Of a stretch of 55,048 nucleotides of DNA, positions 135-46,598 are shown one piece after another. The translations under genes and the position numbers were made by a program. Within the stretch, counting starts at the first letter, position 1; each line of letters begins with the position of its first letter. Where the stretch lies: NCBI GenBank assembly GCA_964476705.1, contig CAYZBM010000003.1, forward strand, positions 1 through 55,048. The letters run 5' to 3'. This stretch comes from an uncultured Rickettsiales bacterium (GTDB lineage: Bacteria > Pseudomonadota > Alphaproteobacteria > Rickettsiales > UBA6187). Under the pieces are notes generated by a model. It was not told the origin of the DNA. It saw nothing but the letters and a program-made list of their open reading frames with translations, and did not search any database.

Positions 135-373
135 TATAGTATTTCATGATTGAAATGACCTATGTTATGGATCCTTCAGCAAAACATAAATGGTATTATA
201 AGCATATGTTTTTTCAGGATATCTAGCATCATAGAAATAATTTAATAATTATTGATTACAGGTAAATTATTTCTTGATCTACTATAGATCCCAGAATAAA
301 TCCGGGATATGTAGCATCATAGTAATGATTTATGTAAGTAATTAAAGTGGAAAATCATTGCTTGATCTACTAT
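135..373 (+). repeat. Modular palindromic repeat, composite copy: A module + H2 (135-286) followed directly by an S module (287-373)
   Basis: Starts TATAGTATTTCATGATTGAAATGA. H1 hairpin runs GGATCC..AAAACATA..TATGTTTT..CAGGAT. H2 inner stem is AGAAATAATTT/AAATTATTTCT and ends CTACTATA at 286. Then GATCCCAGAATAAATCCGGGATAT plus a second H2 ending CTACTAT at 373. Near-identical to 38440-38590. Confidence 0.9.
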
Positions 374-378
374 GTTTA

Positions 379-561
379 CTAACTCATCCAATTATCATTT
401 ACTTTCCTGCGAACGCAAGGAGCTTTCTGGCTAGTGTTTTTCCCGTTATCGTCAGCAGCCACGCACGGACTTTTAAGTTCGTATTTTTTTTCAGTATCTT
501 CGGCATAGCAGCCGCTTAAAAAACTGATGGCAAATAACATGCAAATTGTTAGAAATTTCAT
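379..561 (-). CDS. Small (60 aa) Cys-containing lipoprotein, function unknown
   Basis: N-terminal signal with lipobox FLSGC. The mature ~40-aa peptide has two further Cys (SPCV, APCV) and ends RRKVNDNW. Confidence 0.55.
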   Translation of the reverse strand: MKFLTICMLFAISFLSGCYAEDTEKKYELKSPCVAADDNGKNTSQKAPCVRRKVNDNWMS

Positions 562-758
562 TTTTATATACCTGATTTTAGGTTTTTAACTTGTCCTAAG
601 AAGTATTATAATCAGAAAATAATCTTGAGTCCAAAGTTAAATGTAAAAAAATAATATAAAATTATCGATCATTGTTATTGTAAGAGTAATTTATAATTGT
701 ATAATCTCTAGCCTCTTACAAATGTTATTAAAAATATATTAAAGTATAAATAAAAGTT

Positions 759-3539
759 ATGCCTGAAGCAAATCAAGAAGTAGTCTCTATAGTTAAAGAA
801 ATGCGTGAATCTTATTTAGATTACGCGATGAGTGTTATTGTTAGTAGGGCAATACCAGATGTTTGTGATGGTTTAAAGCCAGTTCATCGGCGGATATTAT
901 TTTCGATGAATGAAACAGGCTGTGATTTTAATAAGCCATACCGAAAGTCGGCACGTATAGTAGGTGAGGTGATGGGTAAGTATCACCCGCATGGCGATGC
1001 AGCTATTTATCAATCTTTAGTCAGAATGGCGCAGAGTTTTTCGATGCGAGTTCCGCTGATTGACGGGCAAGGAAATTTTGGTTCGATGGATGGCGATTCT
1101 CCGGCGGCTATGCGTTATACTGAGTCACGTATGGCTAAAATAGCCCATACTTTACTTGATGATATTGATAAAGAGACGGTTGATTTTCAAGAAAATTATG
1201 ATGGTTCAGAAGTAGAGCCAAAAGTGTTGCCAGCACGTTTTCCTAATTTGCTAGTAAATGGTGGTGGTGGTATCGCAGTTGGTATGGCGACTAATATTCC
1301 GCCACATAATTTAGGGGAAATTATTGATGCCTTATTGTTATATTTAGAAAATAATGATGTAACTGATGAAGAATTAATCCGGATAGTTCCAGGTCCAGAC
1401 TTTCCAACAGGCGGAGTTATTTTAGGTAGGTCTGGTTCAACAAGTGCCTTAAGAACTGGACGTGGCTCTGTAGTTATGCGCGCTAAATATCATATAGAAG
1501 AGTTAAAAAATAGATCAGCAATAATATTTACCGAAATCCCTTATCAAGTAAATAAAGCCTTAGTTGTTGAAAAAATTGGTGAATTAGTTCGCGAGAAAAA
1601 GATTGAAGGCATTGCCGAAATGCGTGATGAGTCTGATAAAGATGGAGTAAGAATAGTTATTGAAGTTAAGCGTGATGCGGTAATTGATGTTTTGGTTAAT
1701 CAATTATTTAGTTATACCCAATTACAAACTTCTTTTAGTGTAAATATGTTGGCGCTGGATGCTGGTATTCCGCGTTTGATGAATTTAAAGCAGGTGCTTG
1801 CTGCCTTTGCAGTTTTTAGAGAAACAGTTATAACTAAAAGAACGGCTTATCTTTTAAATAAAACTCGTAACAGGGCCCATGTTTTAATAGGTTTATCTAT
1901 AGCAGTTGCTAATATTGATGAGGTTATTGCGGTAATTCGTAGTGCGCCAGATCCAAATACGGCTAAAGATTTATTAATGGAAAAAGCTTGGATTGCTGAC
2001 AATGTTAATGTTCTAATTAATTTAGTTGATGATAGCAGAAATAAAATAGTAAATGGCAAATGTTACTTTACTGAGACGCAAGCTAAGGCAATTCTTGAGA
2101 TGAAACTTTCTAGACTTACAGGTTTAGAGCAAGGAAAAATTAGTGCTGAGCTAGAAGAATTAGCCATCCACATTAAAGATTATCTTGATATATTACATTC
2201 ACGCAAAAGAGTTATTGATATTATTTGTTCTGAGCTTAAGGCAATAAGAGAAGAATTTGCAACTCCTCGAATGACAGAATTTTCTGAAAGCGAATTAGAT
2301 ACTGATATGGAAGATTTAATCCCGGTTGAAGATATGGTGGTAACCGTTACTTCTGGTGGTTATATAAAAAGAGTTCCGCTTTCGACTTATAGAGCACAAA
2401 AACGTGGTGGTAAAGGCAGGTCAGGTCTATCGATGCATGATGAAGATATAACTACTAAAGTTTTTGTGGCGACAACTCATACTCCGGTGTTATTTTTCTC
2501 GACTAAAGGTAAAGTCTACAAACTTAAAGTCTATAAATTACCATTAGGGGCGCCTCAATCAAAAGGTCGCGCTTTAATTAATATTTTCCCGTTGGATGCT
2601 GATGAATCTATAAATGTAGTTATGCCACTTCCTGAAAATGAAAAAGAATGGGATAAAATGGGCATAATATTTGCAACTAACTCAGGAACGGTAAGACGTA
2701 ATGACCTTTCTGACTTTAAATCAATTCAAGCTAATGGCAAAATTGCAATGAAACTTGATGATGGTAGTAGGTTAGTTAGTATAAAAACTTGTTTAGAAAA
2801 TGATCATATTTTAATGAGTAGTAAAGATGGTAAATGTATAAGATTCCCAGTTACAGCAGTTAGAGAGTTTAAAAGTCGAGCTTCAACTGGAGTTAGGGCA
2901 ATAAAATTATCTGAGGGTAATGAGGTTGTTTCTATGGATATTTTGTCTGGAGTTGAGCTTCTAGATAATGAACTTAGGGATCAATATTTAAAAATCTCAG
3001 TTGCTTTAAGAATTTCTTTATCTGAAATTTTACATAAAATAGCTCACGAACAAGAAGAAAATAAAGCTAATTTCCAGCAACAAGTTGATGAGATTTTGGC
3101 AAAAATAGAAAGCACTTTAAGTAAAGAGAAAATTCTTGAGCTAGCAAAAACTGAAGAATTTATTCTTTCAATAACTGAAAATGGTTATGGTAAACGTAGT
3201 TCGGCTTATGAATATCGAGTTACTAATCGAGGCGGTACTGGTATTGTAAATATTATAACCTCTGAGCGAAATGGTAAGGTGGTTGCAAGTTATCGGGCTG
3301 ATGATGGTGATCAAGTTTTACTAATTACGACCAAAGGAAAGTTAATTAGATGCGCAGTTAATGAAATTAGAATTACTAGTCGTAGTGCGCAAGGTGTTAG
3401 AATCTTTAAGACTGCAGATGATGAAAAAGTTATTTCAGCAGCTAGTATCGAAGAGTCTGCTGAATCTAAAGAGGTTTTGGAGGTGAAGGAAACTGAGATA
3501 AGTTCTGATATTAATAGTGATGTTGGTACGGAAGAATAA
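759..3539 (+). CDS. gyrA: DNA gyrase subunit A
   Basis: 926 aa. Contains HPHGDAAIYQSLVRMAQ (QRDR region) and the catalytic Tyr context AAMRYTE. The C-terminal beta-pinwheel repeats carry an inserted helical segment. Confidence 0.97.
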   Translation: MPEANQEVVSIVKEMRESYLDYAMSVIVSRAIPDVCDGLKPVHRRILFSMNETGCDFNKPYRKSARIVGEVMGKYHPHGDAAIYQSLVRMAQSFSMRVPLIDGQGNFGSMDGDSPAAMRYTESRMAKIAHTLLDDIDKETVDFQENYDGSEVEPKVLPARFPNLLVNGGGGIAVGMATNIPPHNLGEIIDALLLYLENNDVTDEELIRIVPGPDFPTGGVILGRSGSTSALRTGRGSVVMRAKYHIEELKNRSAIIFTEIPYQVNKALVVEKIGELVREKKIEGIAEMRDESDKDGVRIVIEVKRDAVIDVLVNQLFSYTQLQTSFSVNMLALDAGIPRLMNLKQVLAAFAVFRETVITKRTAYLLNKTRNRAHVLIGLSIAVANIDEVIAVIRSAPDPNTAKDLLMEKAWIADNVNVLINLVDDSRNKIVNGKCYFTETQAKAILEMKLSRLTGLEQGKISAELEELAIHIKDYLDILHSRKRVIDIICSELKAIREEFATPRMTEFSESELDTDMEDLIPVEDMVVTVTSGGYIKRVPLSTYRAQKRGGKGRSGLSMHDEDITTKVFVATTHTPVLFFSTKGKVYKLKVYKLPLGAPQSKGRALINIFPLDADESINVVMPLPENEKEWDKMGIIFATNSGTVRRNDLSDFKSIQANGKIAMKLDDGSRLVSIKTCLENDHILMSSKDGKCIRFPVTAVREFKSRASTGVRAIKLSEGNEVVSMDILSGVELLDNELRDQYLKISVALRISLSEILHKIAHEQEENKANFQQQVDEILAKIESTLSKEKILELAKTEEFILSITENGYGKRSSAYEYRVTNRGGTGIVNIITSERNGKVVASYRADDGDQVLLITTKGKLIRCAVNEIRITSRSAQGVRIFKTADDEKVISAASIEESAESKEVLEVKETEISSDINSDVGTEE

Positions 3540-3567
3540 GGTTGAGTCGTTTTTTCTCTAAGTCGTC

Positions 3568-4110
3568 TTAAATTGGGTTTCTTAGAGAGAAAGGCTTAAA
3601 CTCCCGGATAGTTTTTTTGCACTCAATAGAGCAGCTGGTGTATAACTCAGGATTAACTTCAAAAAAATTATAATATTTTTTTTGCTGAATATAAAATATT
3701 CCCAATATATTATTTTTAACTATATTTGATTTATTGTGGGATATAGTAGATTTTGTTAGGACTTGAGCGATTTGTTTGGCTAGCGTTGCGTATTCTTTAG
3801 TATAAAATATTTTGTTGTTTTCTAGATCGTATTTTTCTATTAAATTATTTAATTCATTAGAAATTATATTTTTTATATTGGTAGGAATTTCAGAGATTTT
3901 TATATGATTTTCTTTTAAAGCTTCGGCTATACTTTTTCCTTCTAGTTTATGAATATCTATCCAAGAATTTTGATTTTTATCATTTTTATCTCTTAATAAT
4001 ATCCTAATTTTCCAATGTTTTCTGGTCGATAATAATATTTTTCTTACCAAAAAATGTTGGTTGTGCTCAATATTGGCGTAAGGAAAGCCTAATAATTGTA
4101 ATATTTTCAT
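3568..4110 (-). CDS. Hypothetical protein (180 aa), Lys/Asn/Ile-rich
   Basis: Uninterrupted ORF in AT-rich DNA between gyrA and a repeat copy. No motif recognised. Confidence 0.5.
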   Translation of the reverse strand: MKILQLLGFPYANIEHNQHFLVRKILLSTRKHWKIRILLRDKNDKNQNSWIDIHKLEGKSIAEALKENHIKISEIPTNIKNIISNELNNLIEKYDLENNKIFYTKEYATLAKQIAQVLTKSTISHNKSNIVKNNILGIFYIQQKKYYNFFEVNPELYTSCSIECKKTIREFKPFSLRNPI

Positions 4111-4245
4111 CTATTATATTAGTTAATATTAATATGTAGTAATTTAAAAGGTTAATCTATTAATTTTTATTATATTAAATCATCCTTAAGAAAGGGTTAA
4201 TTGTATATTCGAAGCTTATTTGCTGGATTTTGGCTTCTGATATTA

Positions 4246-4399
4246 TATAGTATTTCATTAATTGAAATGAATGTATTTTTGGATCCCGAATAAAACATAA
4301 AATAGTATTATAAGGATATGTTTTTTCAGGATATGTAGCATTATAAAAATGATTGATGATATATGTATTTTACTGTCAATCATTTTTTAATCTACTATA
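4246..4399 (+). repeat. Modular palindromic repeat, A + H2 copy
   Basis: TATAGTATTTCATTAATTGAAATGA...GGATCCCGAATAAAACATA...TATGTTTTTTCAGGATAT...H2 inner stem AAAAATGATTG/CAATCATTTTT...AATCTACTATA. Confidence 0.9.
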
Positions 4400-4454
4400 T
4401 ATTGATTATTGCAGATTGCGTTTTAAAATAGATTAGCTTAAACAAGGAGCTTTT

Positions 4455-4946
4455 ATGCGTATAGGAGTCTATGCTGGAACTTTTGATCCTATAACTATGG
4501 GGCATGTGGATATTATAAAAAGAGCAGCAAAAATAGTAGATAAATTAATTATTGGGGTAGCCCAAGATTCGGTTAAAATACCTCTTTTTTCCCTAAATGA
4601 GCGTATCGAGATGGTTAAGCATGATGTGGCTGGTCTACATTCTTTAGGAGCTGATTTGCATGTGGAGGGGTTCTCTGGATTGTTGGTTAAATTTGCTAAG
4701 GATCATAATGCAACTTTACTTATCAGGGGTTTGCGGGCTGTATCTGATTTTGAATATGAGTTTCAAATGGCGGGAATGAATAGTAAATTGGCGACTAATT
4801 TAGAGACAGTTTTTTTACCAGCTACTGAAAGTACGCACTTTATTGCCTCTCGTTTCGTGAAAGAGGTGGTAAGGTTAGGAGGAGATATAAAGGGTTTGGT
4901 TTCTGGGTATGTAGCGGATAAATTGCAAAATAAGTATAATAACTGA
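4455..4946 (+). CDS. coaD: Phosphopantetheine adenylyltransferase
   Basis: GTFDPITMGHVDIIKRA nucleotidyltransferase motif; 163 aa; RBS AAGGAG upstream. Confidence 0.95.
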   Translation: MRIGVYAGTFDPITMGHVDIIKRAAKIVDKLIIGVAQDSVKIPLFSLNERIEMVKHDVAGLHSLGADLHVEGFSGLLVKFAKDHNATLLIRGLRAVSDFEYEFQMAGMNSKLATNLETVFLPATESTHFIASRFVKEVVRLGGDIKGLVSGYVADKLQNKYNN

Positions 4947-5064
4947 TTTTAGCTATTGTGCTAAAAATAATCCGATTAAGGCTTTTAACGCATTTTTATG
5001 TCAATTAAGAGTTTTTCTGTTGGCTTAAGTGCAGTCTATTTTTAAAAATATAAATTTGGAACTT

Positions 5065-5637: not shown

Positions 5638-5814
5638 TAAATATATTATCTTAATTTGCTTGCTTCTTGTCTTCGATTAATCTTAAGTTGGCTATAGATA
5701 AAAGCTTTTAAGGGGGGGCTCGCCTTGTATTTAAGCTTATCTATGGACTATTAAGGTTAAATTTTAGAGGGTTGGATAGCTGTTAATATCTTGTGAAGAA
5801 AAAATATAATTTTG

Positions 5815-5843
5815 TTGACAAGCCTGAGCTTGGTCACTATTCT
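5815..5843 (+). promoter_or_regulatory. Sigma70-type promoter for rplU-rpmA
   Basis: TTGACA (5815-5820), 17-nt spacer, TATTCT (5838-5843), then the C-rich tract TCGCCCTCC. Confidence 0.5.
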
Positions 5844-5903
5844 TCGCCCTCCTTTTAGAGTTTTAAAGGGTTATTTTAGATATTTTACAAAGAGAAATGA
5901 AGT

Positions 5904-6823: not shown

Positions 6824-6846
6824 TTTAAAGGGTCTGGCATTAAATT

Positions 6847-9182: not shown

Positions 9183-9935
9183 ATGAATTTTAAATTGCTA
9201 ACCCTATTTCCAGAAATGTTTCCTGGGCCTTTAAATTATTCTTTAGCTGGTAAAGCTTTAGATAGTGGTAAATGGAGTTTTTCGACTGTTAATATTCGTG
9301 ACTATGCTGAAGATAAGCATGGGACTGTTGATGATATTTGTTATGGCGGTGGTACTGGAATGGTTATGCGCCCTGATATATTAGGTAATGCCATTGATAA
9401 GAATATCGGTAAAAATAGCAAATTACTTTATATGTCGCCAAGAGGTAAGATTTTTAACCAAAATAAAGCTTATGAGCTTGTGAACTCGCCTGAGGATATA
9501 GTGATAATTTGTGGGCGTTATGAGGGTATAGATCAGCGAATTATTGATAAATATGAGATTGAAGAAGTTAGTATGGGCGATTTTGTGCTCTCTGGTGGCG
9601 AAATAGCAGCATTAATGCTTATGGATGCTTGTATTAGGCTTTTACCGGGAGTGATCAGCAAAGGCGAGGCTTTAAATGAAGAAAGTTTTGGAAAAAATAA
9701 AGAATATGCTGGACTTTTGGAATATCCGTTGTATACAAGACCGTCTGAATGGGATGGTTATAAAGTTCCGGATGTTTTATTATCTGGTAATCATGAAAAA
9801 ATAGCCGCATGGCGATTGGCCCAAGCTCAGGAAATTACTAAAAAACGTCGGCCTGATTTATGGCGTTTATATAATAGTTTTACAAATAATAATGGTGATT
9901 CTGCTTTTAAGTTAAAGGATGATAACGAGGTTTAA
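9183..9935 (+). CDS. trmD: tRNA (guanine37-N1)-methyltransferase
   Basis: [10 protein letters not shown] and [13 protein letters not shown] motifs; canonical operon position. Confidence 0.96.
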
Positions 9936-9936: not shown

Positions 9937-10374
9937 ATGGCACAAAATATACTTGAAAAATTTAATGAACAACAAATAGCACGTTTAGCACAAGAAGATA
10001 AAAAATCTTTTAATTTTGCTCCTGGCGATACTGTAAAAGTTAATGTTAGAATTACTGAAGGTAAAACTGAAAGATTGCAGGCTTTTGAAGGACTTTGTAT
10101 TTCAATTAAAAGACGTGGCTTAAATTCAGCTTTCACAGTAAGAAAAATTTCTCATGGTGAAGGTGTTGAACGTACTTTCCCTCTATATTCTCCAGTAGTT
10201 GAAAGTGTTACTACATTACGTAAAGGTGTGGTACGTAGAGCTAAATTATACTACATGCGCGAGCTATCTGGTAAATCTGCACGTATTACTGAGAAAAAAC
10301 AATATGTTGAAAATGTTGCTTCTAAAGCTGCTGCAGCTAAAAATATTGTAGCTGAAGATAATTCTGCAGCGTAA
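9937..10374 (+). CDS. rplS: 50S ribosomal protein L19
   Basis: [23 protein letters not shown] signature. ATG 9937 follows the trmD stop and a GAGG RBS. The track start at 9919 overlaps trmD. Confidence 0.95.
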
Positions 10375-10386
10375 ATTGCTAATATA

Positions 10387-10427
10387 AATACAGTAAATAT
10401 TTTTGTAATAAGGATATTTATTGTATT
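10387..10427 (+). terminator. AT-rich hairpin after rplS (possible terminator)
   Basis: AATACAGTAAATAT / ATATTTATTGTATT arms with one mismatch; only a weak T tract follows. Confidence 0.35.
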
Positions 10428-10520
10428 TTATATATCAATATATAGTTATGTAGTGCTATAATTTCTCTTTAAATTATTTCATTTATTTCATTTTTTATAA
10501 TTAAAAAATTAGGTTTGGAT

Positions 10521-11945
10521 ATGGTAGCTAAGACCTTATACCAGAAGATACTCGATAATCATTTAGTTGATTTAAGTGATGATGGAGTAACTTGTTTATT
10601 ATATATAGACAGACATTTAATTCACGAAGTAACTAGTCCTCAAGCCTTTGAAGGTTTGCGTATCTCTGGACGTAAAGTTTTAAATCCTGCATCATCATTA
10701 GCTGTGGCTGACCATAATGTACCGACAACTCCTGATCGGGTGAATGGTATTGCCGATGAAACCTCGCGAATTCAAGTCCAAACTTTAGAAGATAATGCTA
10801 AAGAATTTGGTGTTAAATATTTTTCTATGGATGATATTAGGCAAGGTATAGTCCATGTGGTAGGACCAGAGCAAGGTTTAACACAACCAGGAATGACTAT
10901 AGTTTGTGGTGATAGCCATACTTCAACTCATGGTGCTTTTGGCGCTTTAGCTTTTGGTATTGGTACTAGTGAAGTTGAGCATGTACTTGCAACGCAGACT
11001 CTTATCCATAAACGCGCTAAAAATATGCGAGTTAATGTAAAAGGTAAGTTAGCTTTAGGGGTTACGGCCAAAGATATAGTGCTAGCAATTATTGGTAAAA
11101 TAGGGACCGCTGGTGGTACCGGGTATGTTATTGAATATAGTGGTGATGCGATTAAAGATTTGTCAATGGAAGGACGGATGACCGTTTGTAATATGACAAT
11201 CGAAGCTGGAGCCAGAGCAGGTCTTATAGCGCCAGATGAAAAAACTTTTACTTATTTAAAAAATCGGCCAATGGCACCAAAAGATCAATATTGGGATCAG
11301 GCGGTAAAATTTTGGCAAAGTTTAGTTTCGGACCAAGATGCAGTTTATGATAAAGAAGTTAATTTAGATGCCAGTGAGATTATTCCGCAAGTAACTTGGG
11401 GTACAAGTCCACAAGATGTGGTGCCAATTAACGGTTTAATTCCTAAAGCTGAAGATGCTAAAGATGAAATCACTAAATCGACTATTAAACGCTCGTTAGA
11501 TTATATGGGCTTTAAGGGTGGTGAAAAATTACAAGATATAGAATTTGATAAAATATTTATCGGTTCTTGTACTAATGGCCGGATTGAAGATTTTAGAGCG
11601 GTTGCTTCTATTGTTAAAGGTCATAAAGTTGCACCAAATATTAAACTTGCGATGATAGTTCCAGGCTCTGGCTTAGTTAAAAAACAGGCTGAAGATGAAG
11701 GTTTAAATAAAATATTTGTCGAGGCAGGTTTTGAATGGCGTGAACCTGGATGCTCTATGTGTTTAGCGATGAATGCCGATAAATTAGAACCAGGTGAACG
11801 TTGTGCTTCAACTTCAAATCGTAATTTTGAAGGTAGGCAAGGCCGAGGTGGTAGAACACATTTGATGAGTCCAATTATGGCTGCAGCTTGCGCGATTAAA
11901 GGTAGATTTGCTGATGTTAGAGAATTTCAAAAGGAGGGCAATTAG
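10521..11945 (+). CDS. leuC: 3-isopropylmalate dehydratase large subunit
   Basis: [14 protein letters not shown] start; Fe-S ligand motifs [23 protein letters not shown]. Confidence 0.96.
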
Positions 11946-12557
11946 ATGGAAAAATTTATAAAGTTAGAAGCAGTAATTGCTCCTCTTCCTATTGTAAATA
12001 TTGATACGGATATGATTATCCCGAAGCAATTTTTAAAAACTATTAAACGTACGGGCTTAGGCAAAAATCTTTTTGACGAAATGCGTTTTACGCCAGATGG
12101 CGAAGAAGTAAAAGAATTTATCTTAAATAAAGAACCATACCGCAAGGCTAAAGTTATAGTAGCTGGCGATAATTTTGGGTGTGGATCATCAAGGGAACAT
12201 GCGCCTTGGGCTTTAGTTGATTTTGGTATAACCTGTATAATAGCGCCTAGTTTTGCCGATATTTTTTATAATAATTCTTTTAAAAATGGAATCTTGCCAA
12301 TAACTTTACCGCAAGCAGATATTGATGTAATTACTGAGTATGCGAGCAAGGATAAAAATCCAGTTATCTCTATTGATCTTCCTGCACAAACAATTACCTG
12401 TGTAAATAATGGCAAATCTTTTGCTTTTAATCTTGATCCTTTTAACAAAAAATGTTTGCTTGAGGGCTTAGACGATATCGGCCTTACTTTAGCTAAACAT
12501 AATAAAATTACTTCTTATGTTGAGGGTTATAAACATAAATTTCCGTGGTTGTTTTAA
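11946..12557 (+). CDS. leuD: 3-isopropylmalate dehydratase small subunit
   Basis: [17 protein letters not shown] motif; starts directly after the leuC stop. Confidence 0.95.
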
Positions 12558-12613: not shown

Positions 12614-15600
12614 TTATTTCGGAGGTTGCCCATTTCCTCTTCCTCGCGCACCTCTTCCTCTTCCAGCATTAGTAGCCCTGGCACCAACTAGATGAGTTGA
12701 GCTATCTTTCGATGTGGAATCATGGCGTCCTTTTTTCATTGCGTTAGCAAGCTTTACTGCCGCTGTTGCTTGGTCCATAGCGGCGGTTAGATCTTCTGCT
12801 AAAGGATTATCTCCCATCGTTATACTCAGACTATTTGCGAATGTGCTTCGAGCTGAGGTAGCTGAGCTGGCATTAGCTTTATCGGCACCAGTTGTTATTG
12901 CCGCGCTATCTGTAGGTTTACTTACCGCTAAATGAAGATTACGCGGCTTTGGCTGAGGGCTAAGTTTTGGTGCTGCCGCTGCAGTAGTTGCAGTTGTAGA
13001 AGAAGTGCCTGTAGTAGAGCTAGAATTTGCAGAAGCAGCGCCTTCTACGTTACGTGGAGTTGCTATAGGAGGGCGAGCTAGAGTAGAATATTTAGGTGTT
13101 GATGCGGCGGTGATAACTGCAGCTCCAGGGCTTGGAGTTTTAGTAGTTATTGAAAGCGTTGTTGTTTGGCTACGTATAGGAAGTGTAGGTGATGCTGCTG
13201 CCGCTGTAGTTATAGTAGAAGCATATAATACAACATCAGCTGCTGATACAGACTCTGCAGCTTTAGCCTTATCTGCTGCAGTTCCTAGCTCACTTAATGC
13301 TGTTAATAAATCCATATCTTTATCTTTTTCCTCATTAGCTTGTGCTAATGTAAAATCAGGCATTGATCTCGTAGGTTGAGTCCGCGAACTTCTACCAGTT
13401 CCACTAACTGATCCGGTCCATGTTCCTGTTGATACACTTCCATAATCATAAGGTTGTTTTCTTTCTATTCTAGCTGGTTTTGCAAGCGCGTTATAAACCA
13501 GATATTCCAGTTCTTTAGGTAAGCCTAAATAACTCTCGATATTTTCTGAAGTACAAATTGCTTTATATAATTCTAATTTAAGCTTATTTTCTTCAGAGGC
13601 TCTATTAATTGCATTGATCTCATCAGGAGTTAATAAAAATAGATGGATTTTTGGTGCTTTAGTTATTTCATTGCCAGCAAAAATAGATAGATAATATTTA
13701 TTATCTTTGTCAAAAGTAACACCAAAACTAAACTTTCTTTCTTCAGATTTATTTATTTGTACAATTTTTTCTGAGAAATTTTTAAGTAAGTGATTTTCTT
13801 CTGTAGCTTTTTCTACAGTAAAGAAATTATAAGGATTCTTAGCAAAATCTGTACTTGCTTTTCCTTTTGATTTTTGGTCTTCTTCCATATATTTTAATAA
13901 ATCTATGGAAGCAATTTTCTGTCCCTCACTGTCTAATATATTAGCGCTTCTACCTTGATCATCTGGATTAACTCGTACGGTATGAGTACTGATATGTTGG
14001 CTAGGATTGGCTAGAACTGTAAGATTAGCTACGGCAATTTTATTTGCGTGGATAAAATCTTGTACTTCCTGATTAGTTCTTTTTTGTATGCTGGCTGAAA
14101 TTTTATTTACTAGAACTTCAGCTGCAACTGAGGGCTCTAATTCAACTCTAGTCATTTCAACTTTGCCACGTGAAATTACTATATGTGTTTTGTTCTTTTC
14201 TGTTTCTATAGATACTTCGTCTTTATGGTTGATAATAGCAATATCGTTATGAGATAAATATTCCTTTAATATATTTTTTAATAGTTCAAGTGCTTTATCT
14301 TTTTCTTTTTTATTTTGGTTATGAGCCATTAATGCTTTAATGGCTCCTTCAATAAGCTTGTCTGCAATTTTAGGATCAATAGGTTTTGAACTTTGTTCTA
14401 TTGGTTGGGCATTTTCTGCTTGTGCTGCTTCTGTAGTAGTTTTTTTTTCTTTTTTATCTAAAGTGCTTGGCACTCTAGTTTGATCAAATTTTATTTGGTC
14501 CTTTTTATATTCTGTTATTGAAAATATTGTACTTTGTTCTCCTGCTTGCCTTCTATCTGTCTTACGATTATTTAATAATAATTTATGAACATAATATTGT
14601 AGTGGATGAGTTAAAAATTCAGCAGTATTTGGCTTGCAGGCTTTATATAATATTTCTTTTATGCGATCTATATCAGTTTCTTTATTTAGTGAAGCTAGAA
14701 TGTCTTTGTCTAATTTAACTTTATATACATCTCCAGTTATGCCAAGCTTGCCTTTAGCTACGCATAGGTAATAAGATCCTGCATCACTGCCATCTGCTAC
14801 CATGGTAAAATTAATCTCTTTAATATCACTTTTGGTAATATCTTGATTAAGTTGACATAAATTTTCTTGAGCTTTATTATATTCTCTATCATTTTCTTGA
14901 GAAGCAGTTTTTTGTTGTCTAAGTGCTGATAAAAAATTTTGAGGTGTTTTTTTAAGTTCCTTTAGCGCTTTATTTTTATCAGAGTTATATTGAGATAAAA
15001 ATAAAGACCAATCAAAATTTGCTACATGTCGTTCTTCTTCTTCTTTAACTCCTATAACCTTTAGAAAAGCACCATTGCTTTCTGTATCTATTTCAAAGGT
15101 ATGTGATTCTCTGTCATCTTGGGCTGGATTAAGAAGAATCATATAGCGGTTAATGGCATCCATTACCGGATAATTATCTAATTTATTAAGAGATTCTGTT
15201 TGGTATTGCTTAAAACTTTTCTCCAGTTCACTTAAAATAACATTAGGTCCTAAAAGTGGGTGGCCGCTCCAGGTGGCAATATTATTTTGGTTCTCATCGA
15301 AAACTTGTAAAGTTAGTTGTTTATTTTTTTCGTCTATGCTGTGTTTGATTGTGCAGTTGATTGGAAACATATTTGTTGCCAAAATTTTTGTTGCTAATTC
15401 TTTTATATTATAACCTAACGAATTATTGGTTATATCTTGAGCTACTGCTTTAGCAATATGAGCTGTATATGTGCTAGTGTTTGGGATATTGGTTAAGCTG
15501 TTTGCTTTATTATTATTACTTTTATGTTTTACATCAAGTAGTCCAGCTGTTTCTTTAATAAGTTTTGCCATATCTTCATCAACAACGGCATCTATTTTTC

Positions 15601-15742
15601 TAAAACCATCCGCCCCAGCAATTGCTATACAAAGCTCTGCGATTTCCTGATTAAAGACTTTTTGTTGTTTAGATTTGTCTGCTGCTGTAGCTGATCCGGT
15701 ACTTGATCTTGATTCTTGTTGGCCTTGTCTACTTGCTGCCAT
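12614..15742 (-). CDS. Large ORFan protein (1042 aa): two tandem ~290-aa modules plus a ~280-aa Ala/Thr/Ser/Pro low-complexity tail ending in an RG-rich peptide
   Basis: A 3.1-kb open frame in AT-rich DNA with RBS AAAGGA upstream. Internal duplication is visible in the translation (LLNPAQ..SHTFEI vs LANPSQ..THTVRV; YYLCVAKG..LYKACK..YYVHKLL vs YYLSIFAG..LYKAIC..YLVYNAL). C-terminus is GARATNAGRGRGARGRGNGQPPK. Confidence 0.8.
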   Translation of the reverse strand: MAASRQGQQESRSSTGSATAADKSKQQKVFNQEIAELCIAIAGADGFRKIDAVVDEDMAKLIKETAGLLDVKHKSNNNKANSLTNIPNTSTYTAHIAKAVAQDITNNSLGYNIKELATKILATNMFPINCTIKHSIDEKNKQLTLQVFDENQNNIATWSGHPLLGPNVILSELEKSFKQYQTESLNKLDNYPVMDAINRYMILLNPAQDDRESHTFEIDTESNGAFLKVIGVKEEEERHVANFDWSLFLSQYNSDKNKALKELKKTPQNFLSALRQQKTASQENDREYNKAQENLCQLNQDITKSDIKEINFTMVADGSDAGSYYLCVAKGKLGITGDVYKVKLDKDILASLNKETDIDRIKEILYKACKPNTAEFLTHPLQYYVHKLLLNNRKTDRRQAGEQSTIFSITEYKKDQIKFDQTRVPSTLDKKEKKTTTEAAQAENAQPIEQSSKPIDPKIADKLIEGAIKALMAHNQNKKEKDKALELLKNILKEYLSHNDIAIINHKDEVSIETEKNKTHIVISRGKVEMTRVELEPSVAAEVLVNKISASIQKRTNQEVQDFIHANKIAVANLTVLANPSQHISTHTVRVNPDDQGRSANILDSEGQKIASIDLLKYMEEDQKSKGKASTDFAKNPYNFFTVEKATEENHLLKNFSEKIVQINKSEERKFSFGVTFDKDNKYYLSIFAGNEITKAPKIHLFLLTPDEINAINRASEENKLKLELYKAICTSENIESYLGLPKELEYLVYNALAKPARIERKQPYDYGSVSTGTWTGSVSGTGRSSRTQPTRSMPDFTLAQANEEKDKDMDLLTALSELGTAADKAKAAESVSAADVVLYASTITTAAAASPTLPIRSQTTTLSITTKTPSPGAAVITAASTPKYSTLARPPIATPRNVEGAASANSSSTTGTSSTTATTAAAAPKLSPQPKPRNLHLAVSKPTDSAAITTGADKANASSATSARSTFANSLSITMGDNPLAEDLTAAMDQATAAVKLANAMKKGRHDSTSKDSSTHLVGARATNAGRGRGARGRGNGQPPK

Positions 15743-15878: not shown

Positions 15879-16007
15879 TATAGCAGTTAAAGCTTGCGCT
15901 TACCTAAATTTTTTATAGATCCCAGACTAAATCTGGGATATGCAAAATCATAGCAATGATTTATGGTAAGTAAATAAAGTGGAAAATCATTGCTATGATT
16001 TGCTATA
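15879..16007 (+). repeat. Modular palindromic repeat, L' + S copy
   Basis: TATAGCAGTTAAAGCTTGCGCTTACCTAAATTTTTTATA, then GATCCCAGACTAAATCTGGGATAT (perfect 8-bp stem), then an H2 with a 16-bp perfect stem ATCATAGCAATGATTT/AAATCATTGCTATGAT. Confidence 0.9.
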
Positions 16008-16162: not shown

Positions 16163-16648
16163 ATGGCACAAAGAGGACAAAAATTTATCGCCATGATAGT
16201 ATTATTTGGGGGACTTTTATCAGTATGGGCAGTTAATGCCTATGCTGATAGATTTTATGGTGAATATTATCATACCAAAGAACGCTATGCATGCATGATT
16301 GAAGGAAGACCAAGCGCATTTGGTTTAGCGCAAAATATTGCGCGCGGAACCAACGATGCTTATGCTAAATATAATGTTATTTTAGAAAGTTATAGCTTTG
16401 ATGAAAAAATTGAAGCGCCTGACTTGGCTTATGCTTTATATCTAATCTCTGAACGAATTGGTGATAGGCGGGCCGTAGAAAAAAAAGAATGGTTAGAACG
16501 TTATATTGATCATGAAACTGTAGATAAAATAGCCTCCACAGTTTATCTTAAATATTCTAAAGAATATCTCGAAAATTGCTTTTCGATAGATGGTAGAGTT
16601 CCGGTTTTATCAGTAAATGAAATTTATCCTATATATATGGATCAGTAG
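16163..16648 (+). CDS. Secreted small protein (161 aa), paralog of 26933..27457
   Basis: Sec-type signal ending AYA/D. Shared blocks with the 174-aa paralog: RPSAFGLA/RPEAYAIA, AYALYLISE/AYAYYLVAD, KKEWLERYIDHETVDKI/KIKWLDIYLKENETKQI, YLENCFS/YLKKCFT. Confidence 0.75.
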   Translation: MAQRGQKFIAMIVLFGGLLSVWAVNAYADRFYGEYYHTKERYACMIEGRPSAFGLAQNIARGTNDAYAKYNVILESYSFDEKIEAPDLAYALYLISERIGDRRAVEKKEWLERYIDHETVDKIASTVYLKYSKEYLENCFSIDGRVPVLSVNEIYPIYMDQ

Positions 16649-16738
16649 TTGGTTTTGTATTTCTTGATTAAATAATTAATATTTGTTATTATTGGTCTTT
16701 AAAAATTAATATTCTTAATAGTTAAAGTAGGATTTTAT

Positions 16739-17025: not shown

Positions 17026-18558
17026 ATGGCACAATCAAAAGAAAGTTTAAGTGCAGTTAATAGTGCAGTTAAGAAATTAATACGTCTTGTGGTGGGGGAT
17101 TTACAATCTTTTGTAAAAAGAGATGGTAATTTTGAGAATCCTTTGCTAGTGCTTACCAGAAAAGAGATAGAAAGTCTATCTATATGGAAATATATTGGTA
17201 AGGATTATATTGGTAAAATATGTGGAGTTGAAGCTAAAGTTGAGGAAAAAGACGGGAAAGAGTTAAAAATATCAAAATTTACGAATATTTTACCGCAAAC
17301 ACCTACATATTTTCCTTGGCAAAAGGCAAGCGTTCTTCTTGATTATCAATTAGATGGTACAAGAGCTCAAACTGAAGAAAAAAAAATAGAGATAGCTACT
17401 TTAGCTATGAGAGAGCTGGCTAAAGAGTTGGTTCCTTCAGTTTTAAGTGAAATGAACTTAGCTCTAAAAAAGTTTGTAACTGAAAATGCAAAAACAGATA
17501 AGCAGAGTATTTTTAATAAAATTAAAAATACTCTTGAAGAGAGTAAAGGGAATACAGCAAAAACAAATCCGATAAATGTTTCGACATCTAGTGAATCTTC
17601 TAGAGATATTAATCTAGGTTTAGAAATAAATTATGACCTAATAGATATAGAAGAATTAGATATTATAATTAAATCTCTCTATAAATTATCAGCAATTATA
17701 AATATAGCAAAAGATGAACCAAAAAAAACTCAGAGATCTCCTGATACACCTGATGATGATGGTATCACTGAGCGAACTATTCTCTATGTTTTGCGGGATA
17801 ATTTATGTTATCAGATAAGCTATACTGAATTACCTGTGATGGATGAAAGGTTTAAAGGTTTTGAAGATTTAATACTGAAGGCCAATAATATTATATATTA
17901 TTCTGGTGATTATAATGATTTAGAAACTTCTGAGATAAACGCTCTTTTTAAAGATATTTCTGATAAAATAATTTCTTTATATCCAGGACTTAAAGAGTTT
18001 TTAGAAGAAATAAATGCAAAAATAGCTAAAGAATATGCTCGTTTTGCTCCTGATAATGCATCTGCAGCAGTTTCAGCATCAGCTCATTCTGATGCAGATG
18101 TTGGTACTCCTCGGAACATGGATTTCTTTACAAAAATGGAAGGAAGTGATGATCCTTTGTTCTCGGCTGAAGAGCTAAGTAAACTAAAATTTAAAATATT
18201 TAAAGATGATTATTTTGATATTAATCAATCAAATATTAATAAATTAAAAGAATTTTGGAGTAAATTTTTGAACCAAAAGGTTTTTGATTTTAATGATCAA
18301 CCCATAAATAAGCCATTATTTGATAATCTTTTAAAAGCTTGTGGTGAAGTATTGCCAGGTCTAATTGTAATCCCTACTATAAATATAGTAAAGAATAGTG
18401 ATGTACATATTTTTCTGTCTAGTTTTGCTACATTTTATGAACTTTGTTTGGATTGTAAGAAAGAAAAAGCTGAAAAGAGTACTACTACACTATCTGGAGC
18501 TAATGCGGCTAGTGCAGCTCAAGTTGGAGGCCTAACTCCAGCTGGATTACCTGGTTAA
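17026..18558 (+). CDS. ORFan protein (510 aa), acidic, no recognisable domain
   Basis: 1.5-kb open frame with RBS AGGAAA upstream. No signal peptide; Ala/Ser-rich patches at ~aa 345-360 and at the C-terminus. Confidence 0.75.
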   Translation: MAQSKESLSAVNSAVKKLIRLVVGDLQSFVKRDGNFENPLLVLTRKEIESLSIWKYIGKDYIGKICGVEAKVEEKDGKELKISKFTNILPQTPTYFPWQKASVLLDYQLDGTRAQTEEKKIEIATLAMRELAKELVPSVLSEMNLALKKFVTENAKTDKQSIFNKIKNTLEESKGNTAKTNPINVSTSSESSRDINLGLEINYDLIDIEELDIIIKSLYKLSAIINIAKDEPKKTQRSPDTPDDDGITERTILYVLRDNLCYQISYTELPVMDERFKGFEDLILKANNIIYYSGDYNDLETSEINALFKDISDKIISLYPGLKEFLEEINAKIAKEYARFAPDNASAAVSASAHSDADVGTPRNMDFFTKMEGSDDPLFSAEELSKLKFKIFKDDYFDINQSNINKLKEFWSKFLNQKVFDFNDQPINKPLFDNLLKACGEVLPGLIVIPTINIVKNSDVHIFLSSFATFYELCLDCKKEKAEKSTTTLSGANAASAAQVGGLTPAGLPG

Positions 18559-34255: not shown

Positions 34256-34384
34256 TATAGCAGTTAAAGTTTGCGCTTTCCTAAATTTTTTATGGATCCA
34301 GGTTTAAGTACCCTGGATATGTAGCATCATAGCAATGATTTATTTAAATAATTAAAACGGAAAATCATTGCTTAATCTACTATA
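34256..34384 (+). repeat. Modular palindromic repeat, L' + S copy
   Basis: TATAGCAGTTAAAGTTTGCGCTTTCCTAAATTTTTTAT + GGATCCAGGTTTAAGTACCCTGGATAT (stem ATCCAGG/CCTGGAT) + H2, ending AATCTACTATA. Confidence 0.9.
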
Positions 34385-38335: not shown

Positions 38336-38439
38336 GGTGTAATTTATAATCTATACTACAGGAAGCTCCCAAGTATAGATTATCCATTATTATAACTGAA
38401 AAAATATCGTAAGATATTTTTTCACGGGCAACTATATTA

Positions 38440-38590
38440 TATAGTATTTCATGATTGAAATGACCTATATTATGGATCCTGAACAAAACATAAATAGTAT
38501 TATAAGTATATGTTTTTTCAGGATATATAGCATCATAGAAATAATTTAATAATTATTGATTAGAGGTAAATTATTTCTTGATCTACTATA
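38440..38590 (+). repeat. Modular palindromic repeat, A + H2 copy
   Basis: Near-identical to 135-286, including ~15 nt of upstream flank (TTTTCAC...ACTATA). H2 inner stem is AGAAATAATTT/AAATTATTTCT. Confidence 0.9.
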
Positions 38591-38642: not shown

Positions 38643-38688
38643 AAAAAAAGCTCCTCACAAAATTAATGTAAGGAGCTTCTTTTTTTTA
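38643..38688. terminator. Bidirectional rho-independent terminator
   Basis: AAGCTCCT / AGGAGCTT stem with an A7 run upstream and a T8 run downstream. Serves the minus-strand DUF465 gene and possibly gapR. Confidence 0.7.
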
Positions 38689-38698: not shown

Positions 38699-38881
38699 TT
38701 AAGCGGCTTTAGCCAGATGTACGCTGCGCTCTAGAGCTGCTATTTCATCCTTAATACTAAGTTTTTCCCTCTTTAATGTCAGGGCCTCGTCGGACCTGTG
38801 ATGCTTATATGCATTATATATTTTTTCTTCTAATTCATGATGCTTCTTGTATAAAGAGTCAATATGTGCTTTAATAGACAT
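38699..38881 (-). CDS. DUF465 (YdcH-like) small coiled-coil protein
   Basis: 60 aa; the HELEEKI....H.....D.....LKREKL.IKDEI pattern is typical of DUF465. Confidence 0.7.
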   Translation of the reverse strand: MSIKAHIDSLYKKHHELEEKIYNAYKHHRSDEALTLKREKLSIKDEIAALERSVHLAKAA

Positions 38882-39756: not shown

Positions 39757-39909
39757 TATAGTATTTCTTAATTGAAATGAATGTATTTATGGATCCCGAA
39801 TAAAACATAAAATAGTATTGTAAGTATATGTTTTTTCGGGATATGTAGCATTGTAGAAAGAATTTATTATATATGTATTTTACTGTCAATTCTTTCTTAA
39901 TCTACTATA
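39757..39909 (+). repeat. Modular palindromic repeat, A + H2 copy
   Basis: TATAGTATTTCTTAATTGAAATGA...GGATCCCGAATAAAACATA...TATGTTTTTTCGGGATAT. H2 inner stem is AGAAAGAATT/AATTCTTTCT, ending AATCTACTATA. Confidence 0.9.
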
Positions 39910-39996: not shown

Positions 39997-40197
39997 ATGG
40001 TTGAAGAACAAAAAATGAGAGATAAGATTGCGGTGCTTGATAGAGAATATAATCAGATCAAGGTAGACATAGTTGAGCTTACCCATGACAAAATATTTGA
40101 TCAGTTGCAGGTGCAAAGACTTAAAAAACGTAAATTAAATCTAAAAGATCAGATAACATATTTACGGACGTCGTTATGTGATGATATCATTGCCTAA
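39997..40197 (+). CDS. DUF465 (YdcH-like) small coiled-coil protein, second copy
   Basis: 66 aa; D....QRLKKRKLNLKDQI matches the DUF465 C-terminal motif. Confidence 0.65.
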   Translation: MVEEQKMRDKIAVLDREYNQIKVDIVELTHDKIFDQLQVQRLKKRKLNLKDQITYLRTSLCDDIIA

Positions 40198-40241: not shown

Positions 40242-40417
40242 TATAGTAAAAGAAGTTGAGAAATACTTATTTGAATGGATCCTTCAGTAAAACATAAATT
40301 TGTTATAAGGATATGTTTTTTCAGGATGACCTGTCCTTAGATTTAGTTCGGGATGTAGCATTATAGTAATGATTTATTTTTTAAAAAAAATAGCAAATCA
40401 TTACTTGATCTACTATA
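40242..40417 (+). repeat. Modular palindromic repeat, divergent A module + degenerate short hairpin + H2
   Basis: GGATCCTTCAGTAAAACATAAA..ATATGTTTTTTCAGGAT, then GACCTGTCCTTAGATTTAGTTCGGGAT, then H2 with inner stem AGTAATGATTT/AAATCATTACT, ending GATCTACTATA. Confidence 0.85.
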
Positions 40418-40968: not shown

Positions 40969-40991
40969 TTTTTATAGATTGAGAAAAAACA

Positions 40992-42065: not shown

Positions 42066-42169
42066 TATTATTTAGCTTTTATTATAGCTATTTTAATAAC
42101 TTCTTAATAGATATAAGCTATATTATAGTTATGGTAACTTTGTAACATTTAAAAATATTGCTTAAAATA

Positions 42170-43831: not shown

Positions 43832-43836
43832 TTTTT

Positions 43837-45312: not shown

Positions 45313-45359
45313 TATCCTTTAAAATATAAAATATATTTTAAAGGTGAGAGATTGTTATT

Positions 45360-46382
45360 ATGGATGTACAGTTAGTTCGTAATGCCCTTAATCAAGAAAT
45401 TGGAAAAATATTAGAGCATTTTAATTCACATGATAACCAGGTTGGCGTTGCTATTCAAACTGGAATTAGGTCTTTACGTTATACCAATATTGATAATGAA
45501 TTTAATCAATTAAAATTACATTATGATCCAGCTTTGTTAACGCAAATATTAAACTCCCATAAAATTTCAGAAAGCGAATTGCAAACTTCAGCAATCTTAG
45601 TAGCTAAATTAAGAGCAGAAGGTAATAAAGAAGCTATAGAAGAAGAGTTAGCAGGACTTCCTGATTATGTGCAGCAAGCTATATTTTCTCTAGCAGATAA
45701 TGTTGAGCTAAAGGCAGAAGAGATTTCTTTTTCCCATAAGTTACCATCATTTTCTGATGTAAAAAAAGAAGTCAAAGATGCCTTGATCTTAAGCCAATTG
45801 GGTGAACTAACTCTGCAGGCCAAAGAGCGAGCAGCATATCATAATAATCTTCCGGGGCTTAAAGAACATATACTTCCTGATTTACTTTATGATTTTGTAA
45901 TAGTAGGTAATCTAGCGCGGCAAGAAATAGGTGAAATATCTAATGAGCCGGAATATCTAGTTGTGTCTAAAGCAATATTACATTTGGCCGATTTATTTGA
46001 TGGGGTAATTAAGTTAGTACCTAAAGCTAAAAATGATCCTAATATAATTGAAGGTTTAAAACTGTTAGAATTACTGGCCTTTAGAATTTTTTCTTTATCA
46101 GTAAAAAAATTACATGAAGTAGGTAATATAGATGCAGCTAATAAAATTAATATTATAGTTAAGGATATTGAAGAAAAATTACAAAATAATCAATCTTCTA
46201 CTATAAATTCCGAAACAGCAATTATGTTTATTGAAAATATTTTACGGGATATGGGCAATATTTTAAGTGCAGAATCTATTTTAGATACCAAAGAATATGC
46301 TGATTTTAATCATTTAATTAGTCAACGTGCTAATCAAATACTAGTACATAATAAAGATTTTGTTTTGCGGGAATTAATATAA
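45360..46382 (+). CDS. ORFan protein (340 aa), acidic, no Cys and no Trp; candidate T1SS cargo or accessory protein
   Basis: Lies 47 nt after the MFP gene with RBS GGTGAGAG. No signal peptide and no GGxGxD repeats. Confidence 0.7.
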   Translation: MDVQLVRNALNQEIGKILEHFNSHDNQVGVAIQTGIRSLRYTNIDNEFNQLKLHYDPALLTQILNSHKISESELQTSAILVAKLRAEGNKEAIEEELAGLPDYVQQAIFSLADNVELKAEEISFSHKLPSFSDVKKEVKDALILSQLGELTLQAKERAAYHNNLPGLKEHILPDLLYDFVIVGNLARQEIGEISNEPEYLVVSKAILHLADLFDGVIKLVPKAKNDPNIIEGLKLLELLAFRIFSLSVKKLHEVGNIDAANKINIIVKDIEEKLQNNQSSTINSETAIMFIENILRDMGNILSAESILDTKEYADFNHLISQRANQILVHNKDFVLRELI

Positions 46383-46489
46383 AAAGTGAATGTAAAAAAT
46401 ATTTTATCTATTCTTTATTTTCTTAATAATTTGTTAACCTGAGTGTGTTATAAATGTAGTATCACATTAGTGTAGATATGGGAATATTT

Positions 46490-46513
46490 AGCCGCTTTGG
46501 GGAGCGGCTTTCT
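46490..46513 (+). terminator. Possible terminator after the 340-aa gene
   Basis: AGCCGCT / AGCGGCT 7-bp stem with a TTGGGG loop, followed by only TTTCT. Confidence 0.35.
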
Positions 46514-46550
46514 ACCGCGATATTGCATTTTTAAATTATTATTGGTAAGG

Positions 46551-46598
46551 TATAGTAGATTGACTGTAAGTTATTGATTTCAATTAAGAAATACTATA
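46551..46598 (-). repeat. 48-bp mini-copy of the palindromic repeat (both termini only), inverted orientation
   Basis: The reverse complement reads TATAGTATTTCTTAATTGAAAT-CAATAACTTACAGTCAATCTACTATA. That is the L hairpin fused to the 3' end of H2. Confidence 0.75.

Follow-up and report, generated by a model that had tools for sequence, protein, structure and literature searches.

A family of small hairpin-forming intergenic repeats with TATA termini in an uncultured Rickettsiales bacterium

The described systems closest to the repeats reported here are the repetitive extragenic palindromes (REP), the REPINs and the bacterial interspersed mosaic elements (BIME) that are associated with the RAYT (TnpA-REP) enzymes; the palindrome-associated transposable elements derived from IS200/IS605, such as IS608; the Correia elements of Neisseria (CREE or nemis); the modular BOX repeats of pneumococci; and the Rickettsia palindromic elements (RPEs). 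Here, we describe a previously undescribed family of small structured, hairpin-forming repeats, which comprises 11 units at 10 loci in a contig of an uncultured Rickettsiales bacterium (CAYZBM010000003.1). The window analysed is the entire 55,048-bp contig, and all counts rest on the 11 units from this single contig. A complete unit reads, in order, TATAG, a variable left arm (L, L' or other), hairpin 1 (GGATCC...GGAT), AT, hairpin 2 (GTAGCAT...H2...CTAC) and TATA. Hairpin 1 occurs in two forms, a short one (A, 7-8 bp) and a long one (H1) with an additional AAAACATA/TATGTTTT stem, and H2 is a 62-64-nt hairpin with a 19-bp interrupted stem.

The units resemble REPs, REPINs and BIMEs (PMC6006769) in being extragenic and multicopy, in having a compensated hairpin structure and in forming several subfamilies per genome. 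In long "double-foot" REPs, the imperfect palindrome measures 21-65 nt, with GT[AG]G at a distance of 0-2 nt on its 5' side and C[TC]AC on its 3' side (PMC6006769), and H2 (GTAG...CTAC, 62-64 nt) follows the same foot rule; the mosaic clusters of different hairpin motifs are also alike in BIMEs. In contrast to REPs, the units have A+T-rich stems and invariant TATA...TATA termini, and their three different hairpins follow one another in direct order and not as inverted REP pairs. Additionally, REP systems have a cognate RAYT gene flanked by the same REPs (a REPtron), no RAYT gene lies in the window, and Y1 genes are rare in the host clade.

IS200/IS605 elements insert 3' of a specific tetranucleotide, carry subterminal hairpins and are biased towards the lagging-strand template (PMC5027513). 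The units likewise have hairpins near both ends, an apparent insertion 3' of a fixed tetranucleotide (here TATA) with no duplication demonstrable beyond that, and a strand bias consistent with the lagging-strand template. They differ in that the terminal and target tetranucleotides are identical and palindromic, and no tnpA or tnpB gene is present in the window. The ends of IS200/IS605-derived elements are not inverted repeats, and a Y1 TnpA acts on single strands of them; the units have short inverted termini. Whereas the distance from hairpin to left end is about 19 nt in IS608, the L hairpin here lies only 2 nt from the left junction.

Correia elements (PMC2649163) share with the units TATAG...CTATA termini, TA-containing sites, internal-deletion classes, an overlapping size range (roughly 70-157 bp), junctions that can create TATAAT boxes and the lack of a known transposase. 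In contrast, they have 26-bp inverted repeats forming one long stem, an integration host factor site, no reported strand bias and another host class. Membership in the Correia family was rejected, as the 26-bp repeat TATAG[CT]GGATTAA... was not found at the unit ends and only TATAG is shared. The pneumococcal BOX elements and other modular repeats (PMC10969869) are similar in that few modules, variable in number and kind, form stable hairpins and that copies are clustered and abutting. However, BOX elements are built as boxA-(boxB)n-boxC with complementarity between boxA and boxC, whereas the modules here mostly co-vary and their junctions lie at TATA. RPEs are also small palindromic repeats proliferating in Rickettsiales genomes, but they code for peptides and lie in frame inside genes, whereas the units here are untranslatable and all intergenic. 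The family is best filed in the broad known class of non-autonomous palindromic mobile repeats, and its features lean to the REP and IS200/IS605 side.

Composition of the family and conservation of hairpin pairing

The original prediction, an earlier note made from the same DNA, had placed the family at 10 loci, and this was borne out by reading each locus and by a repeat finder, which recovered the family as D1-D8, D10 and D12. A two-box pattern for H2 (TAGCATYRTAR-N35-50-TTRATCTACTATA) matched seven times against 0.00 expected in the window. The H2 covariance model gave nine matches of 77-93 bits, all on the + strand, and its best match outside the elements reached 16 bits. Hidden Markov models (HMMs) of the modules, run over the whole window, found L six times, H1 six times, L' three times and A four times, with no further remnants or extra copies. 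Because the H2 model and the module HMMs found nothing else, the list of loci is complete for the window. One entry was redrawn: the locus 135-373, listed as a single element, consists of two units, 135-286 and 283-374, which are joined head-to-tail through one shared TATA at 283-286 (CTAC-TATA-GATCC).

The units are 48-176 bp long, and in every one of them all six frames are interrupted by stop codons; a search for further copies through translated elements was therefore set aside. Intergenic DNA makes up only 16.8% of the window, yet it holds all 10 loci; the units occupy 1,395 of the 9,238 intergenic bases (15%). The flanks outside the termini share no similarity between copies, and the boundaries TATA/G and C/TATA are therefore sharp. 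The family is thus non-coding, intergenic, dispersed, structured and sharp-ended, in support of the original prediction.

The pairing of H2 is held by compensatory changes, for which the evidence is strong. We found that 97.7% of 171 cells were paired, 8 of the 19 pairs were altered on both sides, and none of 500 shuffles was as good. When the partner was moved by 1-3 columns as a slid control, pairing fell to 28-58%. G·T and A·C mismatches numbered 3 vs 2, too few cases to pick a functional strand. Folded as DNA, whole units gave a z of about -6 on either strand, and a whole unit folded as RNA was also better than shuffles (z = -4.25). The 5' side of H2 was GTAG in six of nine copies (CTAG, ATAG and GCAA in the others), and the 3' side was CTAC in eight of nine; units with H2 have 20-29% G+C. 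As read from the sequences, a similar 5' foot stands before most hairpins, namely TATAG-T before L, TAT[AG]G before hairpin 1 (8/10 copies) and TAT-[GAC]TAG before H2.

All module junctions lie at TATA(G). TATA precedes 11 of 11 units, the tandem one included, and is found at both ends of every complete copy; at the ends, it is inseparable from the termini, and no direct repeats are present outside it. Termini like those of a miniature inverted-repeat transposable element (MITE) had been proposed. MITEs are small (under about 300 bp), multicopy and non-coding, a description that the units fit, and their terminal inverted repeats usually reach 10 bp or more, enough for a transposase to bind. 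The short inverted repeat does exist, but it measures only 5-7 bp, four of which are the palindrome TATA. In subfamily I, the repeat is a perfect 7 bp (TATAGTA/TACTATA), with 11 of 14 matches over the first 14 nt, whereas across subfamilies the left ends share only TATAG. The conserved part of the unit is the right two-thirds, consisting of hairpin 1, H2 and CTACTATA, while the left ends vary by subfamily.

H2 falls into type a (at 217 and 38521, 97% identical), type b (305, 27619, 34315 and 15936, 81-97% identical) and type c (4329 and 39839, 87% identical), with a lone b-like copy at 40349. The left arms co-vary with the H2 type: L-a goes with H2a, L-b with H2c, and L'+A with H2b. The result is three subfamilies, L-a+H1+H2a, L-b+H1+H2c and L'+A+H2b, beside which there are one truncation, one internal deletion, one head-to-tail tandem and one recombinant. 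The L-b/H2c group includes the truncated unit at 21924 and the gutted minus-strand unit at 46551, whose remnant is c-type. The predicted modules therefore exist, but they form mostly three co-varying subfamilies plus derivatives and are not freely shuffled. H2 pairs with identities of 97%, 97% and 87% were found at loci 27-38 kb apart, which speaks for recent spread; in particular, the H2 of unit 135-286 is 97% identical to the copy at 38521, and that of unit 283-374 is 97% identical to the one in 27619-27688.

Ten of the 11 units lie on the + strand (two-sided binomial, 0.012) whatever the direction of the neighbouring genes, and four loci are situated between or beside minus-strand genes. 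The only minus-strand copy is the internally deleted unit at 46551-46598. The third-codon GC skew, expressed in + strand terms, was +0.35 for + genes and +0.25 for - genes, and the intergenic skew was +0.12. Since the third-codon skew is positive in both gene sets, the + strand is probably the G-rich leading-strand sequence, that is, the lagging-strand template, with the direction of replication taken from the skew alone.

Distribution, mobility and competing explanations

Five related contigs with a total of 74 kb, whose GyrA proteins are at most 78% identical to that of the window, were used for comparison. The H2 model and all module HMMs (module T, described below, set apart) gave no match in these 74 kb. 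The H2 pattern had 0 matches in species-representative genomes and 0 in viral contigs; its one match in metagenome contigs was inside a coding region and due to chance. No match was found by blastn of two units against plasmids and phages, and Rfam searches at gathering and permissive thresholds returned nothing on the elements beyond weak chance matches. In these collections, the family was thus no recognisable described one, in agreement with the original prediction. In the window, a spacer of 344 nt with a 154-nt unit separates coaD from the open reading frame (ORF) that follows gyrA, while the corresponding spacers of the related contigs L004 and L002 are 190 and 159 nt and lack the unit; 344 minus 154 is 190, the length of the L004 spacer. 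These spacers are too diverged for base-level alignment, so only the length difference is informative; it is consistent with an insertion of the unit in this lineage. An empty site at the 38-40 kb cluster was sought through UbiX homologues, of which the best were at most 68% identical and the top two were on 1-kb contigs. A search for a lineage-specific paralogous protein on other contigs recovered the copy in the window and no other.

Present or recent mobility of the family is well supported by its sharp ends, unrelated flanks, near-identical distant copies and decay products, and by its absence from the spacers of relatives. The best reading is a REP/BIME- or IS200/IS605-like element rather than a classical inverted-repeat MITE. 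We tentatively propose, at somewhat less than an even chance, a lineage-specific, non-coding, non-autonomous repeat that is moved as folded single-stranded DNA by an HUH/Y1-type enzyme in trans. In this proposal, the mobilising enzyme would be a hairpin-recognising HUH/Y1 protein, such as an IS200/IS605 TnpA or a RAYT, whose gene would lie in another part of the genome. Its binding sites would be hairpins with a 5' foot (TATAG, TATGG or GTAG), and it would cleave on the 3' side of two TATA sequences, the flanking one and the terminal one. The strand would then re-insert 3' of another TATA on the lagging-strand template, and the short A+H2 form could reflect the use of an internal TATA/G. Such a mechanism would place the units in one-strand orientation, would join a new unit head-to-tail at the TATA ending an older one, and would keep the right-hand hairpins conserved while the left arms vary.

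The single-stranded route is favoured because pairing and not sequence is conserved, and because this conservation is in internal hairpins rather than in long terminal repeats. It is also favoured because the subfamilies have their entire right two-thirds in common but no more than TATAG at the left, and because the CTAC-TATA-GATCC junction needs either an insertion exactly 3' of TATA or a 4-bp duplication. In addition, the orientation bias matches IS200/IS605, and H2 matches the long "double-foot" REPs. Several points weigh against the proposal. Y1 genes are few or absent in Alphaproteobacteria, Rickettsiales among them (PMC6006769). No Y1 or RAYT gene was found in the window or among the called genes of the relatives' loci; the predicted absence of transposase, integrase and RAYT genes from the window held for every ORF of at least 80 aa. 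The termini TATAGTA/TACTATA form an inverted repeat that is perfect over 7 bp, and a DDE transposase that duplicates a 4-bp target would explain the TATA at both ends equally well. A G+C-rich basal stem belongs to the REP rules, whereas the stems here are A+T-rich. The insertion chemistry is inferred; with 11 units on one contig and a replication direction read from skew, the strand bias is modest evidence.

The most serious rival is a classical MITE, that is, a deletion derivative of an insertion sequence with a DDE transposase, which would be recognised by TATAGTA...TACTATA and moved in trans as double-stranded DNA with TA or TATA duplication, as are Correia elements. We regard this as possible but doubtful. 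The units are indeed small, non-coding, intergenic and sharp-ended, with 7-bp perfect terminal inverted repeats that extend to 11 of 14 nt, TATA flanks every copy, and internal-deletion and truncated variants occur. Correia repeats likewise start with TATAG[CT]GG, insert at TA, fall into classes of about 155, 105 and 70 bp and have no known transposase (PMC2649163). A -10-like TATAAT is present at four right junctions, one of which is spanned by a promoter-like site with 10 of 12 matches. The 7-bp inverted termini and the invariant TATA would fit a Correia-like DDE element nearly as well as they fit movement as single-stranded DNA. However, the left ends (L, L', A and the odd arm at 40242) are unrelated beyond TATAG, so that a transposase binding both ends would have only about 5 bp in common to recognise. 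Moreover, a TA duplication fails to give the CTAC-TATA-GATCC junction, which is obtained only with a 4-bp TATA duplication or with none; double-stranded cut-and-paste predicts neither the 10:1 orientation bias nor selection on the internal hairpins H1/A and H2; and no related insertion sequence lies in the window.

A primary role in host function appears quite unlikely. Under this explanation, the units would be multicopy structured RNAs or DNA sites kept by selection and spread by duplication or recombination, for example small RNAs, mRNA-stabilising or RNase III hairpins, terminators or nucleoid-protein sites. The compensatory changes show selection on pairing, the RNA fold beats shuffles (z = -4.25), several copies are found 56-156 nt upstream of a gene or immediately behind a stop codon, and secondary roles of this kind are described for REP, ERIC and Correia elements (PMC10969869). 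Nevertheless, the orientation of the units follows the DNA strand and not the genes, and copies occur alike in divergent promoter regions, convergent gaps and 3' regions. There is no consistent promoter or terminator and no Rfam match; in promoter and terminator scans, the counts were not significantly different from shuffles. Truncated and gutted copies persist (21924 and 46551), the unit is absent from the orthologous spacer in relatives with the same genes, and quasi-palindrome correction during replication could yield "compensated" arms without any RNA function. An RNA or DNA-site role is possible as a secondary function, but orientation and context argue against a primary one. Membership in the RPEs, which the original prediction had kept in view, is very improbable and, by the coding criterion, effectively refuted. 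The host is Rickettsiales-like, the units are palindromic and about 90-176 bp long, and the related contig L005 carries palindromic repeats that may be RPE-like. However, a conserved peptide is encoded by RPEs, many of which sit in frame within genes (PMC10969869), whereas the units here have stops in all frames and all 10 loci are intergenic. The units also bear no sequence resemblance to the palindromic repeats of L005. Readings as attC sites, dif/IMEX sites, CRISPR or tRNA-derived repeats were dropped without a dedicated test: by eye, no GTTRRRY-type attC core was seen in the units that were read, the neighbours are housekeeping genes on both strands and not a cassette array, and the tRNA genes of the window are confined to 54.3-54.7 kb, at a distance from the elements. 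Among the explanations considered, movement as folded single-stranded DNA is the one that we prefer.

Coordinates and surroundings of the units

Table 1. Repeat units of the family and the modules found to the left of two of them.
Feature	Position	Strand	Composition and remarks	H2 model score (bits)
Module P	39-72	+	Small palindrome CTATAATAC...GTATTATAG (DNA fold); left extension of first locus	
Module T	88-134	+	A-run/T-run hairpin, then TTTTTCAC..GACTA; left extension of first locus	
Subfamily Ia unit	135-286	+	TATAG, L 141-156, H1 171-220, H2a 223-282, TATA	78.6
Short unit	283-374	+	A + H2b, without L'; starts TATAG, ends CTACTATG	88.1
Subfamily Ic unit	4246-4399	+	L-b + H1 + H2c	86
Subfamily II unit	15879-16007	+	L' (39 nt) + A + H2b; DNA fold z = -6.5	85.5
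Subfamily Ic unit, 3'-truncated	21924-22010	+	L-b + H1, without H2	
Subfamily II unit	27561-27688	+	L' + A + H2b	92.6
Subfamily II unit	34256-34384	+	L' + A variant ATCCAGG/CCTGGAT + H2b	89.3
Module P	38351-38378	+	CTATACT...AGTATAG; left extension of 38440 unit	
Module T	38393-38439	+	A-run/T-run hairpin, then TTTTTCAC..ACTAT; left extension of 38440 unit	
Subfamily Ia unit	38440-38590	+	L-a + H1 + H2a	77.6
Subfamily Ic unit	39757-39909	+	L-b + H1 + H2c	82.6
Recombinant or aberrant unit	40242-40417	+	Odd left arm, Ia-type H1, H2b-like hairpin	78.9
Subfamily Ic unit, internally deleted	46551-46598	-	L-b hairpin + last ~20 nt of H2c; L HMM E = 1e-4	

Several copies lie 56-156 nt upstream of genes, and others end close to coding regions. 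Only 4 nt separate the end of the short unit 283-374 from the stop codon of a small lipoprotein-like ORF (379-561, -), and the right end of the 27561-27688 unit is 2 nt from the stop codon of gltX (-). The unit at 4246-4399 is located in a divergent spacer between an ORF (3568-4110, -) and coaD (4455, +). A promoter-like CTGTCA-17-TATAAT runs across the right junction of the 39757-39909 unit. In the 15879-16007 unit, the A hairpin is perfect (ATCCCAGA/TCTGGGAT), and the foot of H2 has changed to GCAA...TTGC in a compensated manner. The aberrant unit at 40242-40417 contains an extra 25-nt piece, ending TTCGGGAT, between H1 and the H2b-like hairpin.

The left limits predicted at 135 and 38440 fell short, as weak homology runs about 95 nt further left at both loci, to 39 and 38351, and adds the two hairpin modules P and T. 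In a global alignment, 39-134 against 38351-38439 scored 19 vs 8.7+/-2.4 for shuffles, with 0 of 1000 as good, and other flanks scored 3-13. The two P palindromes are bounded by CTATA...TATAG, the opposite order to that of the unit termini, and enclose a short G/C stem (DNA fold z = -4.2 and -2.5, respectively); they lie about 60 nt upstream of the subfamily Ia units. Module T is terminator-like, with the consensus tail TTTTTCAC-N-(G/A)ACTAT. Of the whole system, only this module was found outside the window, occurring twice in the closest relative, L002, at 18-55 and 3426-3463 (nhmmer, E = 4e-9 to 2e-7), where it comes after a different long hairpin, CATGAAAGAAAAT...ATTTTCTTTCATG. At the contig start (4-34), a hairpin AAAAATGAAC...GTTCATTTTT followed by CAGGAT resembles the 3' end of H1 (H1 HMM, E = 8.9) and may be a remnant or part of a unit cut by the contig end.

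Other features were observed near the units. A 17-bp bidirectional terminator-like hairpin (38643-38683) lies between the 38440-38590 unit and a convergent DUF465 gene; its weak sub-threshold Rfam matches (uup, Gram-positive sRNAs) are apparently due to chance. Two small DUF465-like genes, 38699-38881 (-) and 39997-40197 (+), are found within a 2-kb stretch that has three units. The ORFs 16163-16648 (+) and 26933-27457 (-) are paralogues with 28% identity and signal-peptide-like N-termini, for which no homologue was found in a collection of 5.8 billion proteins; both have a subfamily II unit 104-156 nt upstream of the start, in opposite relative orientations.

Host lineage and significance of the family

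The window has 32% G+C and is ordinary chromosome; its GyrA is the only member of its cluster, and no exact match to its FtsZ, CysS or L27 was on record. It carries gyrA, coaD, rplU-rpmA-obg, rpsP-rimM-trmD-rplS, leuCD, leuB, cimA, cysS, gltX, nadE, etfAB, galU, ugd, gapR, ubiX, purEK, ftsZ and dapB, together with a type I secretion pair, pilin-like genes, tRNA-Tyr and tRNA-Gly. The nearest GyrA proteins are 72-78% identical and come from metagenome assemblies, of which the named ones are labelled Rickettsiales or Rickettsiaceae. The contigs of these relatives share the order gyrA-(orf)-coaD-L21-L27-obg, which reaches S16 in L004 and L006 and, in L006, goes on to leuC by way of rimM-trmD-L19. 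TrbL/VirB6, ankyrin and LRR genes occur on these contigs as well. From the GyrA relatives and the shared gene order, the host is an uncultured Rickettsiales-like alphaproteobacterium without a close sequenced relative. Genes for leuC, leuD, leuB and citramalate synthase are present (10515-12557, 18720-19799 and 23830-25419), and classical Rickettsiaceae keep less of such biosynthetic capacity. Their retention suggests a lineage less reduced than classical Rickettsiaceae.

Large ORFs without Pfam or NCBIfam match were found at 12614-15742 (-), 17026-18558 (+), 19817-21796 (-) and 45360-46382 (+); the 1042-aa member of this set has a long tail rich in Ala, Thr, Ser and Pro, which ends in RGRG repeats. 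These ORFs may encode proteins specific to the lineage that an intracellular bacterium secretes or uses as effectors. The gene at 52580-53260 (-) encodes a retropepsin-like aspartyl protease (gag-asp_proteas, E = 8e-27). In the related contig L005 (GyrA 74% identical), we observed unrelated palindromic intergenic repeats with GTCATTCCAGAA/TTCTGGAATGA and CGTCATTGCGAG/CTCGCAATGACG arms at 9382-9414, 9564-9600, 10328-10492, 13360-13525, 14635-14825 and 16573-16655, and each lineage therefore seems to have its own families. The GTCATTCCAGAA... and CGTCATTGCGAG motifs may resemble those of RPEs. L005 also contains seven tandem copies of a 108-nt unit (3531-4478) inside a 632-aa ORF that has no Pfam match and lies beside gyrA.

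The intergenic DNA of intracellular bacteria is shaped by small palindromic repeats, and to our knowledge, such repeats have hardly been catalogued outside Rickettsia. The family described here lies beside housekeeping genes, next to their promoters and stop codons, and its paralogous copies covary in an unusually clean way. Should the strand bias and the TATA rule fail, it would be one more MITE family, which could still serve in annotation and as a strain marker. Should the strand bias and the head-to-tail rule at TATA apply throughout the genome, it would offer a compact natural example in which to study the hairpin-dependent, replication-coupled building of mosaic repeats and would point to an unrecognised mobilising enzyme in environmental Rickettsiales. 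A more specific and less probable possibility is that the units are the REP/BIME-like units of a TATA-specific HUH/Y1 system in Rickettsiales, in which mosaic multi-hairpin arrays would be built head-to-tail and strand-specifically at the replication fork, as each inserted unit would end in a fresh target. If true, this would be a single-strand system in a clade thought to have almost no HUH/Y1 enzymes.

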